From assembly GCA_034430375.1 (NCBI GenBank), contig DAOUER010000075.1, positions 2,027-66,026 of the forward strand: 64,000 bases of DNA, read 5' to 3'. A program made the position numbers and the translations under genes. Below are positions 6,069 through 61,801 of the stretch, in pieces. Under the pieces are notes generated by a model. That model saw only the letters and a program-made list of their open reading frames with translations, was not told the DNA's origin and did no database searches. The DNA is from Dehalococcoidales bacterium. Its GTDB lineage: Bacteria > Chloroflexota > Dehalococcoidia > Dehalococcoidales > RBG-16-60-22. How positions within the stretch are numbered: position 1 is the stretch's first letter; the number at the start of each line of letters is the position of its first letter.

Positions 6069-6488
6069 ATGATAGTTGAACAGTATAAACCAGAATACGA
6101 AAACGCTGTTATTGAACTATGGGAGAAATGCGACCTGACCCGACCGTGGAACTACCCTGGGCTGGACATAGCTCGCAAGATGAAAGTAAACCCGGAACTT
6201 TTTCTGGTAGGCCAAATCGACGGTAAAATAGTAGCCTGCGCTATGGGCGGCTACGAAGGCCACCGCGGCTGGGTCTATTACCTGGGCGTCGATCCGGAAT
6301 ACCGGCGGCAGGGATTGGGCAAGCAGATGATGGACGCCGTTGAAACCAGGCTCCTGGAGATGGGCTGCCCGAAAATCAACATACAGGTACGTGACGGAAA
6401 TACCAACGCTCTTAATTTCTTCAGTAAAATCGGCTATAGTACAGAGGATAGAATCAGCCTGGGTAAACGACTGATCGAAGATGGATAA
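6069..6488 (+). CDS. ypeA: GNAT family N-acetyltransferase, YpeA-like
   Basis: LWEKCDLTRPWN...GGYEGHRGWVYYLGVDPEYRRQGLG...LGKRLIED tracks E. coli YpeA as I recall it. Confidence 0.7.
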   Translation: MIVEQYKPEYENAVIELWEKCDLTRPWNYPGLDIARKMKVNPELFLVGQIDGKIVACAMGGYEGHRGWVYYLGVDPEYRRQGLGKQMMDAVETRLLEMGCPKINIQVRDGNTNALNFFSKIGYSTEDRISLGKRLIEDG

Positions 6489-6819
6489 TCTGGAAATAAT
6501 AGCTTTCGGATTCCAGCGAAGCATTCCTGAAATAATAGCGTGGAGTATGGGTATTACCCTGGCCATAATCATGCTCCGACGGGGCGGTAAAAAACCGGAA
6601 ATACTGCTGCTGCTCGGATGCATCCTGTTCCTGCTGGCTTCACTTTCATCGCTGATAATCACCAGCCTTATCCAGTGGGGGCATGTGTTTGATATAAGCG
6701 CGGTGGGATACGGGCTTATAATTGCCCTAACCACCGGGTTATTCTCTCTGGTCGGTTTTATATGCCTGGCCTGGGGTTTCTGGACCAGGTTCCGTAAAAG
6801 AGGAGTATCACCACCATGA
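6481..6819 (+). CDS. small multi-pass membrane protein (paralog 1)
   Basis: Hydrophobic segments. Shares IIMLRRGG(K/G)xPE and CLxxxFWxxF motifs with the next ORF. Overlaps the GNAT stop. Confidence 0.6.
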   Translation: MDNLEIIAFGFQRSIPEIIAWSMGITLAIIMLRRGGKKPEILLLLGCILFLLASLSSLIITSLIQWGHVFDISAVGYGLIIALTTGLFSLVGFICLAWGFWTRFRKRGVSPP

Positions 6820-7172
6820 CCGTAACGGATTTTCTATTAATATTGTCAGCTTCAACGCCATCCCTGCTTTTTTGGATCGCCGTTATTGTCCTCGGCATTA
6901 TCATGCTGCGACGGGGCGGCGGTAGACCCGAGCGTTTTCTAATAACCGGAGGTAGCCTCAAGATAATTGCCATCATACTGACAGCGTTATCCCCCTACTA
7001 TCTATTCGGTCGTATGGATAATGTCGATGAAATAGTTTCGGTCTATCACTGGAAGCAGATATTCACCAGTATTATCCATGCCGCCGGTATCACTTGCCTT
7101 ATCTACGCCTTTTGGGTAAAGTTTAATAGTAAAATGAATCATCGGGGTACCATGGCTTTACCCCAGCAATAG
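6816..7172 (+). CDS. small multi-pass membrane protein (paralog 2)
   Basis: Tandem paralog of 6481-6819. ATGA-type 4 nt overlap. Confidence 0.6.
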   Translation: MTVTDFLLILSASTPSLLFWIAVIVLGIIMLRRGGGRPERFLITGGSLKIIAIILTALSPYYLFGRMDNVDEIVSVYHWKQIFTSIIHAAGITCLIYAFWVKFNSKMNHRGTMALPQQ

Positions 7173-7184
7173 AGAGAGGTAATT

Positions 7185-9851
7185 ATGACACAAACCCCCG
7201 ATAGCGGAGAGATGCCCAAGGCCTACGAGCCGGGCAATACCGAGAGTAAATGGTATGACTTCTGGATGGAGAAGGGCTATTTTACGCCGCAAATAGTCCC
7301 CGGAAAACAACCTTTCGTTATCATCCACCCGCCCACCAATATCACCGGCGATATGCACCTGGGCACCGCTATCACCGCTACACTGGAAGACATCATGATA
7401 CGTTGGCACCGTATGCTCGGGGAACCCACTCTCTGGCTGCCCGGGATCGACCACGCCGGTATCGCCACCCAGGTAGTGGTTGAAAGGGAACTGACTAAAG
7501 AAGGCATCGACCGCTATGAACTGGGGCGCGAGAAATTCCTGGAAAAGGTATGGGAATGGGCCGATAAATACCGCGGAAATATCATCGACCAGCATAAAAG
7601 ACTGGGGGCTTCTCTCGATTGGTCGCGCCTCTGCTTCACCATGGACGAAGGACCGAGCAAAGCAGTGCGTACGGTTTTTACCAATCTTTATAAAAAGGGG
7701 TTAATTTACCGGGGAGAGCGGATTATCAACTGGTGTCCGCGGTGCGTCACCGCCATTTCCGACCTGGAGGTGGACCATATTGATACCAACGGGCATCTCT
7801 GGTACGTCAATTATCCCTTGGTAGATAACAAGAAGAAGTCTATCACCGTGGCCACCACGCGCCCGGAAACGATAGTCGGGGATACGGCGGTAGCCGTTAA
7901 TCCCAACGATATCCGCTTTAAAAAGCTCATCGGCAAGAAGGTATTATTACCCGCCGTCAACCGCGAGATACCCGTCGTCGCCGATGAAGCGGTGGACATG
8001 GAATTCGGCACCGGCGCGGTGAAAATCACCCCCGCCCACGACCCCGTCGACTTTGACGTGGCCCAACGACAGGGCTTGTCTTTGATAAACATCCTTCATG
8101 CCGACGCCACCATGAACGAGAACGCCGGACCTTACGACGGTATGGACCGGTTTGAGGCCCGTGAGGCGATTATAGCCGACCTGGAAAAGAGCGGACAGCT
8201 GGTGAAAACCGAGGAATACAGTCACGCCGTGGGACACTGCCAGCGCTGCCATACCATGGTAGAACCGCTGGCCAGCCTGCAATGGTTCGTGAAAATGAAG
8301 CCCCTGGCGGAGCCGGCGATTGCCGCTGTCAGAGATAGGCAGGTTAAAATCATCCCCGAAAGATTTTCCAAGGTCTACTTCAACTGGATGGAAAACATCA
8401 GGGACTGGTGCATCAGCCGCCAGCTGTGGTGGGGACACCGCATTCCCGTCTGGTACTGCCATGACTGCGATGAAATAACGGTAGCCATTGAGACGCCGAC
8501 TAAATGCTCCAAATGCCAGTCAGCCAATATCGAGCAGGACCCGGACGTGCTGGACACGTGGTTCAGCTCGGCGTTATGGCCCTTCACCACGCTGGGCTGG
8601 CCCGGTGATACACAAGACCTGCGCTACTTTTATCCGACCACCGTCATGGAAACCGGTTACGATATCCTCTTCTTCTGGGTAGCCCGGATGATTATGATGG
8701 GCATCGAGCATACCGGGGACATCCCCTTTCACACCGTCTATCTGCACGGCCTGATACGGGACGAAAGGGGCGTCAAGATGACCAAGACCAAGGGCAACGT
8801 CATCAACCCGGTAATCGTCATCGAGAACTTCGGCACCGACGCCCTGCGTTTCGCCCTGCTGATGAGTACGTCCCCGGGCAACGACAGCAAGCTGTCCGAC
8901 GCCAAGCTGGAAGCCGGCCGGAACTTCGCCAACAAGCTATGGAACGCCACGCGGTTTGTGCTGCGTAACCTGGAATCCAGAGAAAAAGTCGATAGTGATA
9001 TCGACCGGAAGCGATTGCCGGTCGAGGACCACTGGATACTTTCACGATTGAACCGCACCATTGAGAGCGTGACGCGGCTCATGGAAGAGTTCCAGTTCGG
9101 CGAGGCCGAAAGGCAGGTGCATGACTTCCTCTGGGGAGAATACTGCGACTGGTATATCGAGCTGGCCAAGATAAGATTACAGTCGAACGACAGATCACCC
9201 CTGCCGGTGCTGCTACACGTACTGGAAAAATCCTTGCGACTCCTCCATCCCTTCATGCCCTTTATCACCGAAGAGCTATGGCAAAACCTGAAAAAGCACC
9301 TGGACTGGCTTGATACCGAATCCATCATGGTGGCGCCCTACCCACAGGCCGACCAGGCATTGATAGATACCGGGGTCGAGGAAGAGATTAATACGCTCAT
9401 CGAGATTACCCATGCTATCCGTAACGTCCGGGCCCAGTACAAGGTAGAACCACAGCGGTGGATTGAAGCCGTTATTCATACCGACACCGCCGTCGGTCAA
9501 TCATTGCTACCCTACGCCGAAGCGGTCAAGACACTGGCACGGGCTAATCCGGTCAGCTTCAGGGAAGATGAGCCGGCGAGTGAAACCGATAGTAACACGC
9601 TGGTATTACCGTTAAACAAAGCGACGGTGGCTATCCCCATGAGCAGCATGGTGGATATCGAAGCCGAGAAACAACGCCTGCAAAAAGAGATTGACTACGT
9701 TCAGGCGGAAGTAACCCGACTGGAAACCAGGCTGCAGAACGAATCTTTCCTGACGAAAGCTCCGAAAGCGGTTATTGAAAAGGAAAACCAAAAACTCTAT
9801 ACTTTACATGATAGGCTGGAAAAGCTTGAACAGCAGAGTTCCAGGCTGTAG
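7185..9851 (+). CDS. valS: valine-tRNA ligase
   Basis: Class I HIGH (PPTNITGDMHLGT) and KMSKS-like (KMTKTKGN) motifs, plus a C-terminal coiled coil. Confidence 0.97.
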   Translation: MTQTPDSGEMPKAYEPGNTESKWYDFWMEKGYFTPQIVPGKQPFVIIHPPTNITGDMHLGTAITATLEDIMIRWHRMLGEPTLWLPGIDHAGIATQVVVERELTKEGIDRYELGREKFLEKVWEWADKYRGNIIDQHKRLGASLDWSRLCFTMDEGPSKAVRTVFTNLYKKGLIYRGERIINWCPRCVTAISDLEVDHIDTNGHLWYVNYPLVDNKKKSITVATTRPETIVGDTAVAVNPNDIRFKKLIGKKVLLPAVNREIPVVADEAVDMEFGTGAVKITPAHDPVDFDVAQRQGLSLINILHADATMNENAGPYDGMDRFEAREAIIADLEKSGQLVKTEEYSHAVGHCQRCHTMVEPLASLQWFVKMKPLAEPAIAAVRDRQVKIIPERFSKVYFNWMENIRDWCISRQLWWGHRIPVWYCHDCDEITVAIETPTKCSKCQSANIEQDPDVLDTWFSSALWPFTTLGWPGDTQDLRYFYPTTVMETGYDILFFWVARMIMMGIEHTGDIPFHTVYLHGLIRDERGVKMTKTKGNVINPVIVIENFGTDALRFALLMSTSPGNDSKLSDAKLEAGRNFANKLWNATRFVLRNLESREKVDSDIDRKRLPVEDHWILSRLNRTIESVTRLMEEFQFGEAERQVHDFLWGEYCDWYIELAKIRLQSNDRSPLPVLLHVLEKSLRLLHPFMPFITEELWQNLKKHLDWLDTESIMVAPYPQADQALIDTGVEEEINTLIEITHAIRNVRAQYKVEPQRWIEAVIHTDTAVGQSLLPYAEAVKTLARANPVSFREDEPASETDSNTLVLPLNKATVAIPMSSMVDIEAEKQRLQKEIDYVQAEVTRLETRLQNESFLTKAPKAVIEKENQKLYTLHDRLEKLEQQSSRL

Positions 9852-18987: not shown

Positions 18988-19066
18988 TCGCCCCCTTTTC
19001 CCCCCTCCCCAAAAGGATTTTTTCCCACCCACCCTTTTAATGAAAAGAGGGGCTTCGCCCCTCTTA
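18988..19066. repeat. C-tract/G-tract repeat module (inverted orientation) plus AAGAGGGGC-TTC-GCCCCTCTT hairpin
   Basis: The reverse complement of 18988-19033 resembles 6004-6050 and 57491-57536. The 9 bp hairpin at 19045-19065 resembles 57342-57364. Confidence 0.6.
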
Positions 19067-54274: not shown

Positions 54275-54303
54275 TCAGATAGAAATAACCGAATCAACAG
54301 ATT

Positions 54304-54345
54304 AGCTGGAAGCCTTGATATTCCTGGCTTCCAGCTTTATCTTTA
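54304..54345. terminator. bidirectional intrinsic terminator between rpsI and the PGI/PMI gene
   Basis: Perfect 11 bp stem AGCTGGAAGCC (54304-14) / GGCTTCCAGCT (54326-36), followed by TTTATCTTT on the plus strand. Confidence 0.6.
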
Positions 54346-54348
54346 CCC

Positions 54349-55434: not shown

Positions 55435-56868
55435 CTAATCAACACCGGCTATTTGCTTACCGATTTCCAGCAAACGGCCGACCCGCTCCGGCGAGTCGGT
55501 CTCGGTGTAAATGCGGAGCAGGGGTTCGGTGCCGGAAAAACGGATCAGCAGCCAGGTATTGTCCTTGAGAATATAGCGGAAACCATCGGTTGTATCCAGC
55601 CGTTCGACGGCGACATTATCGATGATTTTCCGGGGATTATCTTTTACCCGGTTGATAATCTTCTCCCTCTCCGCCGCCGGGAACCTTATGTCAACCCTCC
55701 GGTAATGGTGCGGCCCTACTTTGGAGTAAAGGTAATCGATGAGCTCCGAAGGTTTCTTGCCGGTTTTCACCATGAAGTCGAGGAAGTAGAGGATGGCCAG
55801 GATGCCGTCACGCTCGGCGACATGGTTGCGAAAGCCGTAGCCGCCGCTTTCCTCGCCACCGATAATCGCTCCGGTCTCCATCATTAATGGGGCTACGTAC
55901 TTAAAGCCCACCGCCGTCTCATATACCGGGACATCGAATATCTCACCGAGGCGGTAGGCCATACTGGTGGTGGTTATTGTTTTAATCAGGGGTCCACGCT
56001 CACCCCGTACCTCGAGCAGATACAGGCAAAGGAGCGCGAATACCTGGAGTTGGGTAAGGAAAATGCCGTTTTCATCCACGATGCCCATGCGGTCGGCATC
56101 ACCGTCGGTAGCCAGTCCAGCATAAGCCCCTTTTTCTTTCACCACCCGGGAAAGCTTATCCAGATTGGGTGCAATCGGCTCCGGCCTGATGCCGGGAAAA
56201 AGCGGATTACGTTCGCCGTTTATTTCAATTACCTCGGTCATTCCCCCCGTTAAAAGCCTTTCCAGATAGCCGGCTCCGGCGCCGTACATGGGGTCGTAAA
56301 CCAGCTTGAGTCCCGCCCGGCGTATAGGTTCCAGGTCAATTAATCTGGCCACTTGCTCGAAGTAGATGACGTCCAGGTCGATATCTTCAACCAACCTCTT
56401 TTCACGGGCTTCCGCCAGCGGCAGCCGGCTGATTTTCTCGGTATCAAAGGCAGTAGCGACGCATTTTTCTATGGAAGCGGTCGTCTCATCCGAAGCACTG
56501 GAGCCGTGTTCGTTTTTATATTTAAAGCCGTTCCAGATTCCCGGATTATGACTGGCGGTGATGATAATGCCACCACCGGTCTTTTTAGCCAGGACACCGT
56601 AGCTGACCACCGGGGTGGGTGTAGCCCGGGGACAGAGAAATACTTTGATACCGTTACCGGCAATCACCTCGGCAGTGGCGGCCGCGAAATCCTCGGAGGC
56701 AAAGCGGGTATCATAACCGATGATTATGCCCTGTTCCGAAAGCCCCGACTGCTTGAGGTAGTCGGCAACGCCCTGGGCACAGTAGCGCACATTATCAAAG
56801 GTAAAGTCTTCGGCAATGACAGCCCGCCAGCCGTCGGTACCGAATTTTATGGGATTTTTCCTGGCTAT
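55435..56868 (-). CDS. phosphoglucomutase/phosphomannomutase family protein; probable non-canonical (ATA) start
   Basis: TASHNP phosphoserine loop and GDGDADR metal loop. The conserved N-terminal FGTDGWR lies upstream of the first GTG (56790). GGAGGTGA sits 5 nt before ATA at 56868. Confidence 0.85.
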   Translation of the reverse strand: MARKNPIKFGTDGWRAVIAEDFTFDNVRYCAQGVADYLKQSGLSEQGIIIGYDTRFASEDFAAATAEVIAGNGIKVFLCPRATPTPVVSYGVLAKKTGGGIIITASHNPGIWNGFKYKNEHGSSASDETTASIEKCVATAFDTEKISRLPLAEAREKRLVEDIDLDVIYFEQVARLIDLEPIRRAGLKLVYDPMYGAGAGYLERLLTGGMTEVIEINGERNPLFPGIRPEPIAPNLDKLSRVVKEKGAYAGLATDGDADRMGIVDENGIFLTQLQVFALLCLYLLEVRGERGPLIKTITTTSMAYRLGEIFDVPVYETAVGFKYVAPLMMETGAIIGGEESGGYGFRNHVAERDGILAILYFLDFMVKTGKKPSELIDYLYSKVGPHHYRRVDIRFPAAEREKIINRVKDNPRKIIDNVAVERLDTTDGFRYILKDNTWLLIRFSGTEPLLRIYTETDSPERVGRLLEIGKQIAGVD

Positions 56869-56906
56869 TTACGTCACCTCCTGAACTATCTGATAAATAA
56901 AGAGGA

Positions 56907-57194
56907 TTACCTGCCCTTTCTGATTTTATCAACTTCCTTTTCTATCTCGTTTAGTTCCCAGGCCGACTGCTTATGGAAGATAAAGACATCCAGGCCGTGA
57001 AAAATCAGGCCGACACCCCAGGCGGCCATCGGCCAGACAAACCAGGGGTAACCTCTGCCAGTAAAAGCCCAGATGATTACCAAGAGTAGATTGATAACGA
57101 CATAAACAGCAATGTGACTGTAAAAGTCTCTCTTTTCCCTGACTCTTTTTCTGGCAATGGAGTATATTTCTTCTTCAGACATCGGCGGTGGCAT
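56907..57194 (-). CDS. 2TM domain-containing small membrane protein
   Basis: RKRVREKRDFYSHIAVYVVINLLLVIIW...WPMAAWGVGLIFHG pattern of the 2TM family. Confidence 0.7.
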   Translation of the reverse strand: MPPPMSEEEIYSIARKRVREKRDFYSHIAVYVVINLLLVIIWAFTGRGYPWFVWPMAAWGVGLIFHGLDVFIFHKQSAWELNEIEKEVDKIRKGR

Positions 57195-57314
57195 AACTAA
57201 TACCCCCTATCGATAACATACCTGCCATTATTATAGGACATATGCGGTTGGTTATCTACCCATTGAGATTAGCTTTATACCTCTCACCCTGTGTCCCCCA
57301 TTCGAAAGATATTA

Positions 57315-57536
57315 TTACCCCCCCTCCCACCCATTAAGGAGAAGAGGGGGCTCCGCCCCCTCTTTAAGATAAATCTCCCTTAATCCCTCCTTACGAAGGA
57401 GGGAAAGATTGACTAATAAATAAGATATACGGTTTGTACAGTCATCCTCTCCCCTTCGTAAGGGGAGAGCTAGAGAGGGATTTACCCCAAGGGCGGCCGG
57501 GTGGGATTAGATATCTAAAAAAGGGGCGGGGGAAAG
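57315..57536. repeat. cluster of G-tract/C-tract hairpin repeats (three perfect hairpins plus a GGGTGGG...GGGGCGGGGG module)
   Basis: Hairpins at 57342-57364 (10 bp), 57385-57403 (8 bp) and 57447-57469 (10 bp). The module at 57491-57536 matches 6004-6050. Confidence 0.7.
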
Positions 57537-57558
57537 GAAGAGGATTAATTAGTCTTTA

Positions 57559-58257
57559 TTAAACCGTCTTTAGTCTATTGCTAGACTCTAGATTCTTCAT
57601 AGCGAATGACTTATTCTCATACATATAGTTTAAGAAATGCTGTATAGTAGTAATTACTTCTTCACAAAATGACGCCGTTAATGCTATCTCTTCATCAATA
57701 GTATCATGAGAGATGATACCCGTTTTCTTGAGATATGGAATGAGTACTCTTCTGTCTTTATATTCCAGTTCCATAATTAAGCCATCCTTGTGCACGATAC
57801 AATTTCGTACTTTGTAATAAAATTTTAGTTCTTGCCATATTTTACTACGATGATAGGATTCCAAATCTACAAGTTTCCAGACTAACTTAGCCTGCTCGTA
57901 TCCTTTATCTGTCGAATCTTTTGATGGTATTAACTCTATTTTCTTCAGTCTGCTGTATATTACATATATTTCATATTCTAAATATGAAATAGCAGTAACT
58001 AAAAAAGAATTGCGAAGAATCCTGGGAAATTTAACATCATAGTACCAGTGTTTATCATTATAAATATCATTTCGTATATCATTTGGAAGAGAGTCAAGTC
58101 CTAATTCTGTAAATGACTTAGTTTCAAACTCTGATTTAGCTTTGGCCAGATATTTTTCAGTGACATTCAGGAATTGTTTAAGTTCATCAAACTCCTTGTA
58201 CGCCACTAAATGGTCGATGTCTCCTCTTATTGTAATTTCACACATTAAAATTCCCAT
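57559..58257 (-). CDS. AT-rich orphan HEPN-like protein (Rx4H motif RNCIVH)
   Basis: 232 aa ORF, visibly AT-rich compared with its neighbours. YYKVRNCIVHKDG (57807-57790) fits the HEPN Rx4-6H signature. An upstream helix, FPRILRNSFLVTAISYLEYEI, resembles RiboL-PSP/AbiU2-type HEPNs. Confidence 0.6.
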   Translation of the reverse strand: MGILMCEITIRGDIDHLVAYKEFDELKQFLNVTEKYLAKAKSEFETKSFTELGLDSLPNDIRNDIYNDKHWYYDVKFPRILRNSFLVTAISYLEYEIYVIYSRLKKIELIPSKDSTDKGYEQAKLVWKLVDLESYHRSKIWQELKFYYKVRNCIVHKDGLIMELEYKDRRVLIPYLKKTGIISHDTIDEEIALTASFCEEVITTIQHFLNYMYENKSFAMKNLESSNRLKTV

Positions 58258-58279
58258 AGGGTATCTACATAATTGACTA

Positions 58280-59488
58280 CTACCCCATTCCCTCTTTCTT
58301 TAATACCTCAGCCTTGTCGGTTTTCTCCCAGGGCAAGTCGAGGTCGTCACGGCCAAAGTGCCCGTAGGCGGCCGTCTGCCGGTAGATGGGACGGCGGAGG
58401 TCAAATCCCTGGATGATAGCGCCGGGCCGGAGGTCGAAGTGCTTATTAATCAGTTCCTTTATCTTATCAACGGATACCTTACCGGTACCGAACTCTTCGA
58501 TAGATATCGAGAGCGGGTGCGCCTTACCGATAACGTAAGCCACCTGGATTTCCAGTCGGTCGGCCAGTCCGGCAGCGACGATGTTCTTGGCGATGTAGCG
58601 CGCCATGTAGGACGCCGAGCGGTCGACCTTGGTGGGGTCTTTACCGGAGAAAGCCCCGCCACCGTGCCGGGCGGCGCCGCCGTAGGTATCCACGATTATT
58701 TTTCGGCCGGTAAAGCCGGTATCGGAAACCGGCCCGCCGATGACGAACCGGCCGGTGCCGTTAACGTAGTACTGCGTATCGGAGTCTATCAGCGAATCGG
58801 GAACGACTTTCCTGATTACCTGAGCGATGATATCTTTTTCAATCTGCTCCAGGCCGACATCGGGGTTATGCTGGGCGCCGATTACGACGTTAACAATCCG
58901 TTTGGGGACACCATTATGATATTCAACCGTTACCTGGGACTTGCCGTCGGGACGGAGATATTTTAAAGTACCGTCTTTCCTGACCCTGGCCAGCTGCCGG
59001 CAGAGTTTATGCGCCAGCGAGATAGGCAGGGGCATCAGTTCCGGGGTCTCGTTGCAGGCAAAGCCGACCATCATTCCCTGGTCGCCGGCCCCGATTTCGT
59101 CGAGATGGCTGCCGCCACTGGTCTCTTTCGACTCCATTGACTTACTTACACCCTGGTCGATATCAGCCGACTGCTCGGTGATGGAGACCATGACGCCGCA
59201 GGATTGATAGTCGAAGCCGTAAGCGGGACTCGTGTACCCGATATCACGGACAACGTCTCTGACAATCCGGGGGACATCAACGTAGCAGTTAGTGGTGATT
59301 TCACCCAGGACGATAACCTGTCCGGTGGTGGTAGCTACTTCGCAGGCCACCCTGCCGTAGGGGTCTTTACCCATAATATCATCAAGAATGGCATCGGATA
59401 TCTGGTCGCACATTTTATCAGGGTGTCCTTCGGTAACCGATTCCGATGTGAGCATATATTGAGATGAATTAGCAAAACTGGTTGACAT
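58280..59488 (-). CDS. metK: S-adenosylmethionine synthase
   Basis: [26 protein letters not shown] motifs. Confidence 0.97.
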
Positions 59489-59521
59489 TTCGTCCTCCTT
59501 CGAGCCAGCCGGTTGTTATTA

Positions 59522-60799
<1,278 letters not shown>

Positions 60800-61024
60800 T
60801 TAATTTGGTATCCAATTCCCCACAGGTTTGTGGACTACTGGCACATTATTCCCGATGTTATTATCTGTTATTTCATTCACCTGCCAGTTCAGGTTAACTA
60901 TAACATAATACAAGACATGATACAACATATAGAGCGATATTTCAAGTATCATTTTGGACATTTGTCCCTTTTTATCATGTCACAAACGTTATTCATCCCT
61001 AAATGCTTGTACTTTCCTACCCTC

Positions 61025-61417
61025 TTAGATAATTCCCCAGTCCTGGAAACCCTGCTTAATAACGGCCCCGTACGCTTGAGAAGGTAGGGTTTCTTCCAAC
61101 TGCCCGGATTTAATATAGGTAATCGCCTGGTGAGGCTCATTATCCTCGTCAAAAACGGTAATATTCATTCGCTGATAGCCGACTTCGAACCTGTCAAGTT
61201 GCCGTAAACAGGCTTCACTTACCTCGTAAACGGCTCCACGCACCTTTTCCCCCCGGAATGACTTGATGCTGGCTTTACCCCCACGCCATTCCCTTGACCA
61301 GCCGGTGAAGACGAGTTTATAGTTCGGGAGAACCGCCGTGAACAGGGGCTTACTGTCCGGACAGCGTGTCTGCATCTGCTTTTTACTCAAATTCGTGGCG
61401 TAAGCGAAGTAATACAT
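61025..61417 (-). CDS. gamma-glutamylcyclotransferase-like (AIG2/GGACT family) protein
   Basis: MYYFAYATNL (YFAYGSNL-type motif) and a conserved Glu later in the sequence. Confidence 0.7.
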   Translation of the reverse strand: MYYFAYATNLSKKQMQTRCPDSKPLFTAVLPNYKLVFTGWSREWRGGKASIKSFRGEKVRGAVYEVSEACLRQLDRFEVGYQRMNITVFDEDNEPHQAITYIKSGQLEETLPSQAYGAVIKQGFQDWGII

Positions 61418-61801
61418 TGCGTTTCCCCTATCTAATGCCCGTGATTATGCACCGGGCTTTCCCCCGAACCGGGGGTCTGTTCGACGGTCTGTCAGCATCC
61501 CGGCTCGCCCGGATGGCCGCAACAACTTTGCCGTTTCGTTATTTTTATCCAATTGTTACGAAAAAGCAGGTATATTTTTCTCGGCAGCGGCATCGGGGCC
61601 GACATATTGGTAAAAAAGGACCATAACGGCATCAGGATTACTCTCCCCTCCGATATTCCCTGTATTTATTATAATACATGCCGCGGCAACTCTCTAGAAT
61701 ATGCAGGATATATACACCCGAGTTTTCAAATTTAGCATACTTCCCCGTATATTCCCAATATTTACAGGCAAACCGGAGAAATAGTAAAATACGGGAACGC
61801 C

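Follow-up and report, generated by a model that had tools for sequence, protein, structure and literature searches.

In prokaryotic immunity and in toxin systems, HEPN RNases act as central effectors. Here we describe a HEPN-like gene that lies directly behind metK, the S-adenosylmethionine (SAM) synthetase gene, in a 64,000-nt stretch of the genome of a Dehalococcoidales bacterium (GenBank assembly GCA_034430375.1, contig DAOUER010000075.1, positions 2,027 to 66,026 of the forward strand; this whole stretch is termed the window, and coordinates are counted from its first letter). Its product is best described as belonging to an unnamed HEPN family, the Dehalococcoidia branch of which is a fixed-slot accessory cassette behind metK and, judged by analogy, would work most like the stand-alone HEPN RNases of abortive infection and toxin systems.

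Canonical HEPN domains have a four-helix up-down core, in which an Rx4-6H motif ends helix 3, an acidic residue lies in helix 2, and a variable insert separates helices 2 and 3 (Anantharaman et al., 2013; PMC3710099). A working model by analogy is provided by ApeA and DARNA (PD-T7-3), which are stand-alone HEPN proteins that lack an antitoxin, are auto-inhibited and infection-activated, and cleave tRNA anticodon loops (bioRxiv 10.64898/2026.01.26.701840 and 10.64898/2026.02.22.705581); the window protein is likewise a stand-alone HEPN-like protein, with no antitoxin partner beside it. The build differs, however: DARNA (456 aa) has a separate sensor domain, whereas the window protein is a bare HEPN-sized module (228 aa), and ApeA is activated via a ligand pocket apart from its catalytic center, while the family studied here gives no PADLOC ApeA match. 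The best profile match is RTasHEPN (PADLOC PDLC03820), associated with the UG22-type defense reverse transcriptases (RTs), and probably, by our own inference, the same as "cluster 79" of Mestre et al. (2022; PMC9226505). RTasHEPN and the window protein are both small, all-helical, and equipped with an Rx4H motif, but in the UG22-type defense-associated RT systems (RT plus HEPN) the RT gene adjoins, whereas the window neighbors are metK and a 2TM-domain gene, with no RT. The nearest Pfam family is RiboL-PSP-HEPN (PF18735), an active family with the Rx4-6H motif that is distantly related to AbiD/AbiF (PMC3710099), and the matches to it are collinear with the helix-2 and Rx4H regions; members of that family are fused to endoRNase L-PSP or share an operon with ParB, whereas the window protein is single-domain, has no such neighbor, and scores below the threshold. 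Because no RT adjoins the gene and the Pfam scores stay sub-threshold, we file the protein under neither family. Two toxin-antitoxin designs are also comparable. In HEPN-MNT (HepT/MntA) the toxin is a small Rx4H HEPN protein, as here, but an MNT antitoxin adjoins it, and there is none at this locus; in contrast to type III (RNA antitoxin) systems of the AbiF-like kind, no toxin-specific structured RNA was found here, and the nearby hairpins also occur in a gene-less relative. Our literature search found no paper linking HEPN to metK.

The gene and the conserved parts of its product are as follows.

57559 to 58257, minus strand: open reading frame (ORF) of the HEPN-like protein, longest reading 232 aa (ORF list and translation)

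57559 to 58245, minus strand: likely coding sequence of the gene, 228 aa from the second ATG (M5), on the basis of homolog N-termini and database entry P0001

57790 to 57807, minus strand: R151-N-C-I-V-H156, the Rx4H motif and predicted catalytic pair, invariant in 130 members and placed at the C-terminal end of model helix 139-157

57970 to 58029, minus strand: helix-2 block, FPRILRNSF (residues 77-85, 58003-58029) and LEYE (residues 93-96, 57970-57981), including the acidic E94, within model helix 59-106

The gene is real and conserved. A word-indexed search returned 26 homologs (64-36% identity), all of them unnamed and without a Pfam domain, and a profile built from these 26 recovered, from 1.84 billion cluster representatives, 4,163 proteins at E ≤ 1e-3 and 1,951 at E ≤ 1e-10, nearly all 200-250 aa in size; the word "orphan", used of this gene in a preliminary description of the locus, does not survive these numbers. 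In species-representative genomes, relatives occur in Dehalococcoidia, other Chloroflexi, Ignavibacteria, Nitrospirota, Gemmatimonadales, Planctomycetia, Desulfobacteraceae, Verrucomicrobiaceae, Saccharibacteria, Jeotgalibacillus, Paenibacillus, Pantoea, and the archaeon Methanoperedens. When named relatives were sought with a broad profile, only "hypothetical protein" entries with no precomputed Pfam domain were found, and a cluster look-up of the relatives gave no names. The homologs start with M-[ST]-ITIRGDFDHL and entry P0001 is 228 aa long, which together point to the second ATG (M5, 58245) as the likely true start. This codon lies 34 nt past the metK stop and has a GGGA ~9 nt on its 5' side; the first ATG, at which no convincing ribosome-binding site is present, lies 22 nt past the metK stop on the same strand, the distance originally reported.

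Among 130 diverse family members (mean column identity 23%), the only invariant columns are R151 and H156, with N152, S84, E94, C101, Y126, and W141 conserved in at least 90%. The pair is contained in YYKVRNCIVHKDG, which begins at residue 147, and its position (57807-57790) is exactly that given in the preliminary description. The conserved upstream helix proposed there is also borne out, as FPRILRNSF and LEYE are invariant across the 26 close homologs, and two of their residues, S84 and E94, are among those conserved in the wider set.

HEPN membership is well supported by the motif, by profile comparison, and by the topology of a predicted model, while fold comparison gave no confirmation. 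At the profile level, the family is homologous to the HEPN model from defense-associated RT systems: RTasHEPN matches the window protein weakly and in part (E = 1e-4, 20 bits); of the 130 members, 115 are matched (best E = 7.6e-10), over profile positions ~45-141 of 148, the two thirds of the model that bear the motif. PF18735 (gathering cut-off 28.4 bits) is matched by 7 of the 26 close members (best E = 1.7e-4) and by 4 of 10 distant members (top listed score 20 bits), in every case below the cut-off, and these matches are collinear with the helix-2 block and the Rx4H region, in different members. The RiboL-PSP-type likeness suggested earlier is thus retained insofar as this is the nearest Pfam family, although all of the scores fall short. 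Isolated members touch the Cas13a, Csm6, and CARF_HEPN models of PADLOC; for the window protein itself, there is no PF05168 match and a PHROGs search gave nothing significant. The AlphaFold2 model (built on the 26-sequence alignment; pLDDT 85, pTM 0.81) is all-helical, and comprises a helix at residues 14-46, a long helix at 59-106 that carries the conserved block and E94, a helix at 139-157 ending in R151..H156, and C-terminal helices, with residues 107-138 forming a low-confidence, poorly conserved insert. The topology of this model, which is predicted and not a solved structure, is that of the canonical HEPN layout (PMC3710099). Foldseek returned no significant solved HEPN structure, HepT (7ae6 and 8yuf, E 0.5-2) being the only HEPN entry type among the weak matches, and the only significant structural neighbor in a BFVD search was a Myoviridae protein (TM 0.57-0.61). 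The HEPN-like nature first proposed is supported by the motif, the RTasHEPN profile, and the model topology, with no significant Foldseek match to a solved HEPN structure.

The composition of the gene sets it apart from its surroundings. The G+C content (GC) of the ORF is 0.322, and that of its third codon positions (GC3) is 0.300, compared to 0.55 and 0.64-0.67, respectively, for metK, ahcY, and PGM, a contrast that had been supposed before it was computed. This is the lowest GC of the 71 non-overlapping window ORFs (mean GC 0.528, sd 0.039; mean GC3 0.610, sd 0.065), of which the next lowest has 0.451. Recoding the protein with window codon preferences gives a GC of 0.441, so that roughly half of the deficit arises from codon choice and half from amino acid composition. 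All copies are AT-rich, with GC of 0.30-0.43 in hosts of GC 0.42-0.58 and no tracking of host GC, and with GC3 of 0.25-0.40 in hosts with GC3 of 0.6-0.8. Within the window ORF, a perfect 11-bp A+T hairpin, TATTTCATATT-CTA-AATATGAAATA (57967-57991), coincides exactly with the codons of the invariant S-Y-L-E-Y-E segment. It may have arisen from codon choice or may be a feature of the RNA.

The surroundings of the gene consist of the following elements.

58280 to 59488, minus strand: metK (SAM synthetase), directly upstream of the HEPN-like gene (ORF; Pfam S-AdoMet_synt domains on homologs)

59522 to 60784, minus strand: ahcY (S-adenosylhomocysteine hydrolase), first gene of the ahcY-metK unit (ORF; AdoHcyase Pfam on syntenic genes)

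58246 to 58279, minus strand: 34-nt spacer from the metK stop to the likely start (sequence)

57544 to 58279, minus strand: AT-rich window-specific block, ~736 nt, missing from the closest relative (alignment with loci L023, L025, and L026; composition profile)

57447 to 57469, 57384 to 57404, and 57342 to 57364, minus strand: three perfect G+C-rich hairpins with 9-10 bp stems (direct hairpin scan)

57230 to 57258, minus strand: promoter-like TAGATA-17-TATAAT before the 2TM and PGM genes, at the downstream edge of the variable slot (scan; conserved in relatives)

56907 to 57194, minus strand: gene of a 2TM-domain protein, 95 aa, between the hairpins and PGM (ORF; PF13239 on orthologs)

60917 to 60945, minus strand: TTGAAA-17-TATCAT, the best promoter-like site 5' of ahcY (consensus scan, 10/12 matches; pattern match only)

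In the Dehalococcoidia-type clade, the gene is accessory and has one fixed place, bounded by the metK stop codon on one side and by the metK terminator hairpin on the other. In a metagenome scan, where identity was at least 37% and the upstream sequence sufficed, metK stood immediately upstream in 24 of 24 loci (three are the window genome and 21 are non-self); it did so in none of the loci below 32% identity. The subfamily directly follows metK in the Chloroflexi metagenome-assembled genomes (MAGs) RBG_16_56_11 and RBG_16_50_9 (the latter with a 2TM gene in between), in two Dehalococcoidia MAGs, and on contigs of P0002 and P0003, and metK is directly upstream at loci L008, L009, L010, L027, and L030; the spacers of metK-linked copies are mostly 22-41 nt, on the same strand, with 25-41 nt in most copies other than that of the window. 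The 21 non-self loci run counter to the view that the gene is a one-off insertion. Related Dehalococcoidia carry the gene only sometimes, yet nearly always in this slot: with gene-less loci sampled by metK similarity (84-91% identical metK, including the closest found) and carriers by similarity of the HEPN-like protein, the gene is absent from five distinct metK loci with intact GGACT-ahcY-metK-...-PGM-PGI-rpsI synteny, and a tblastn search of these empty sites found no remnant. This comparison of metK-to-PGM intervals, which the preliminary description had proposed, bears out its view of an accessory gene of foreign type, as do the incongruence with metK divergence and the phage and plasmid relatives described below. 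The condition named there as refuting this view, a conserved position with native composition, holds by half, in that the position is conserved and the composition is non-native everywhere.

The empty slots are not all alike. At L023 and L024 only the hairpin cluster is present, and at L115 and L116 nothing. The slot of L025 contains an AT-rich (GC 0.32) ORF of 145 aa (6268-6705, minus strand), on the opposite strand, with a hydrophobic N-terminus and no Pfam match, and that of L026 contains an NT5C-family nucleotidase gene (6379-6948). The metK-PGM slot is a general site of gene turnover.

The unit of insertion or deletion can be delimited by alignment. In place of the window block at 57544-58279, L023 has 44 nt, which include the 5' arm of the metK terminator hairpin AAGAGGGGCGTTAAGCCCCTCTT, and past the block the window and L023 are collinear through the hairpin cluster and the TATAAT promoter-like element; the stretch GGTAGATAAC..CATATGTC.TATAATA is conserved in the window, L023, and L025. 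At gene-less loci metK runs into the terminator hairpin, and in several carrier lineages the same hairpin stands behind the stop codon of the HEPN-like gene. Together, these two observations indicate that the indel unit is the spacer plus the ORF, between the metK stop and the metK terminator. The 3' element of the gene is a perfect G+C hairpin of 21-23 nt, which is also found behind metK in empty sites.

The divergence of the gene does not follow that of metK. Across 12 lineages, identity of the HEPN-like protein (36-71%) and of the adjacent metK (65-86%, a narrow range) show a correlation of r = -0.05 (Mantel p ~0.5), and simple vertical co-inheritance with metK is not supported, either by this value or by that for 7 taxa (r = 0.31). 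Acquisition by homologous recombination inside metK was also rejected, since no mosaic was seen and the window metK is nearest, as far as its stop codon, to its own clade, which lacks the gene. Nor is the gene an integron gene cassette: no integrase was found in the syntenic neighborhood of any locus (within the window, the search for intI covered this part only), and there is no attC-like site. Two copies were found away from metK. One of these, at L001, lies between EF-G and ETF genes on an 811-kb contig and is 71% identical to a metK-linked copy. Directly upstream of it are ~38 nt of metK 3' coding sequence, and the hairpin AAGAGGGGCGAAGCCCCTCTT is at its stop codon (7925-8003 and 8688-8712); this metK fragment and terminator hairpin indicate that the L001 copy derived from a metK-linked locus. 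The empty slots, the uncoupled divergence, the L001 fossil, and the AT-richness together point to an accessory cassette that moves between related genomes and either inserts or is kept at a single slot. The combined evidence from slot, divergence, L001, and composition fits neither a long-resident gene nor one recent insertion.

Outside Chloroflexi, the contexts are diverse, and the gene is AT-richer than its flanks in most hosts. Across 17 loci, the only gene in common is the HEPN-like gene, its neighbors sharing no Pfam family and no BLAST cluster, and a conserved partner gene across phyla was rejected on this basis. No RT is found in the 25 of 54 neighbor Pfam families listed for these loci, nor among ten neighbors scanned individually, and no MNT, ParB, or L-PSP gene is found among the neighbors of related loci. 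In the window, the ORF list holds no MNT-sized partner on either side of the gene; the claim that an antitoxin-sized partner is missing therefore stands for this locus and, in terms of recurring neighbor families, for the 17 related ones. Some relatives keep mobile or defense-related company: a Priestia plasmid island carries one with dcm, restriction endonuclease, HNH, and DGQHR genes, the Paenibacillus relative adjoins DndB-like and MrpR recombinase genes, and the Pantoea relative adjoins HNH and integrative conjugative element genes. In Bacillus phage vB_BteM-A9Y (L032, 4836-5444), a member at 29% identity lies between HNH endonuclease and small terminase genes, where it could possibly serve superinfection exclusion or counter-defense. 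The BFVD neighbor, a Myoviridae protein, belongs with these relatives too. At the Chloroflexi loci examined, no defense genes flank the gene.

Several neighboring features deserve mention in their own right. The three perfect hairpins directly downstream of the gene belong to a set of 13 distinct ones, each of 8 bp or more, that were counted across the window (loops 3-5 nt), in line with the density originally ascribed to this cluster, and 57360-57345 scored as terminator-like; they are likely terminator or REP-like elements. The link between gene and cluster drawn in the preliminary description does not hold, as the cluster is also present in the gene-less L023 and is thus independent of the gene. 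Hairpins of the type AAGAGGGGC-loop-GCCCCTCTT recur within the window (57342-57469, and a similar one at 19045-19065) and, in many related genomes, behind metK or behind the HEPN-like gene. They resemble a terminator/REP-like family that spans the lineage, and they may mark recombination-prone sites. The 2TM gene (GC 0.46, the third lowest in the window) is present in the window, L005/L008, L007, and L025, and absent from L023, L026, L009, L115, and L116; in L007 it lies upstream of the HEPN-like gene. It is a variable neighbor of this gene, not a partner. A second variable slot, between PGI and rpsI, contains AT-rich genes in L005 (11820-12918) and L115 (8060-9160), with a PIN-domain and a DUF6941 gene in both and, in L005, an 81 aa ORF between these two. 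The GC of this cargo is 0.38-0.42 in a background of 0.57 (measured on the L008 copy of the L005 locus), and it looks like a VapC-type toxin module; the corresponding window interval (54275-54348) holds nothing. Finally, the interval from ahcY to the GGACT-family gene (60785-61024; the gene is at 61025-61417) has a second GC dip (~0.40) and the best promoter-like sites of the area.

We consider it somewhat better than an even bet that the gene is a horizontally exchanged, promoterless cassette encoding a stand-alone HEPN RNase of ~228 aa from a large unnamed family, with a probable role, suggested by analogy, in defense or as a toxin. A consensus scan found no terminator-like site in the spacer behind metK and no minus-strand promoter-like site upstream of the gene, and the site at 60917-60945 is, as a sequence match, a candidate promoter of an ahcY-metK-HEPN-like unit. 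The gene would thus have no promoter of its own and be transcribed by read-through of ahcY-metK, with AT-rich, rare-codon coding that would limit translation and keep protein levels low. As in HEPN proteins generally, the product may dimerize, such that two Rx4H motifs form one metal-independent RNase site, and, by analogy with ApeA and DARNA, it may be auto-inhibited until a stress or infection cue. Once released, it would cleave tRNA, mRNA, or rRNA and thereby stop growth, as an abortive infection or toxin effector does, and its alleles may spread between lineages by recombination at the metK slot. The sequence reveals neither the cue nor the means of control, which is the main gap in the model.

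Other points weigh against this view. The window protein has no match in Pfam (E ≤ 10) or NCBIfam, and a search of the PDB by sequence, with the single protein and two profiles, gave no relevant relative; the RT-associated family that provides the best profile match is itself only a "remote" HEPN homolog (Mestre et al., 2022; PMC9226505). Outside Chloroflexi, the gene is in many cases found simply among housekeeping genes. For a defense gene, so nearly exclusive a linkage to metK is unusual, and it might reflect a physiological connection with the SAM cycle; nor is it easy to see how a lone toxin without visible control could be constitutively co-transcribed with an essential gene.

These last points lead to the alternative that survives best, although we hold it to be unlikely: that the protein is not a conflict gene product but a physiological RNase, a member of the metK operon that processes or degrades RNA according to the state of methylation or of SAM supply (it might, for instance, regulate the ahcY-metK transcript or cull under-methylated tRNA or rRNA). 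The tight same-strand linkage, at 22-41 nt behind metK in most of at least 21 lineages with 65-88% identical metK, is what such a role would lead one to expect, as is the lack of flanking defense genes in Chloroflexi, and even the translocated L001 copy derives from the metK locus. A housekeeping function of this kind fits poorly, however, with a gene that is dispensable, being absent from five loci with intact ahcY-metK-PGM synteny, whose divergence is uncoupled from metK and whose GC3 is persistently foreign; moreover, the wider family has no metK link and is found in phages and plasmids.

A less probable account, to which we give little weight, holds that the gene is the toxin of an addiction module whose antitoxin (a small RNA, a tiny ORF, or a gene elsewhere) has gone unrecognized, and that it persists in the slot with no role in defense. 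The DARNA bioRxiv preprint reviews how HEPN toxins can be restrained, through RNA antitoxins in the case of AbiF and through covalent modification in that of HepT, and the gene has a selfish look, being AT-rich, horizontally exchanged, and followed directly by structured hairpins. Yet the hairpin cluster is unchanged in L023, which lacks the gene; this argues against a dedicated antitoxin, and the hairpins were accordingly rejected both as an RNA antitoxin and as part of the cassette. At 22-41 nt, the spacer on the upstream side is too short for a repeat array, no neighbor recurs in the 17 loci, and Rfam gave nothing at E ≤ 1 over 56500-61500, with no SAM riboswitch or known sRNA detected.

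A shade more doubtful still is the proposal that the protein is a helical non-nuclease (a structural, adaptor, or regulatory bundle), with R-x4-H used for binding and with profile matches that reflect shared helical composition. Here the missing match to a solved HEPN structure and the Pfam scores, all below cut-off, count in its favor, and inactive HEPN domains exist (PMC3710099). Against it, R151 and H156 are the sole invariants at ~20% pairwise identity, and N152 and the acidic residue of helix 2 come close to invariance, a pattern that is the signature of catalysis and not an effect of helical composition. Moreover, 115 of 130 members match the same HEPN model over the motif region, and the topology agrees with the HEPN layout.

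It is also improbable, and slightly more so, that the protein is a sentinel coupled to the SAM cycle: promoterless within the ahcY-metK transcript, it would rise in dose with SAM synthesis, and a threshold or the sensing of SAM or S-adenosylhomocysteine would trigger RNA cleavage and abortion. The trigger might be, for example, a phage SAM lyase or MetK inhibitor that drains SAM to disarm restriction and BREX-type defenses. If this were true, the metK 3' slot would be reserved for docking a "guard" of a metabolic hub, which Dehalococcoidia lineages would exchange as a cassette. As for a spurious ORF in an AT-rich intergenic insert, the extreme composition and the first ATG without a convincing ribosome-binding site might suggest it, but the chance is negligible, since full-length homologs with conserved motifs, from 64% down to 20% identity and in many phyla, together with a confident model, refute it.

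The interest of the locus is high only if the linkage to metK is functional. Presence or absence at a fixed slot behind an essential SAM-cycle gene, combined with foreign composition and an uncoupled history, is unusual, and it offers a natural system for asking how accessory toxin-like genes borrow housekeeping promoters, and whether SAM metabolism and RNA-targeting defense are functionally tied. The family comprises at least 4,000 clusters that are invisible to Pfam and NCBIfam and annotated as "hypothetical", and naming it would improve the annotation of defense genes, especially in the poorly studied Chloroflexi.

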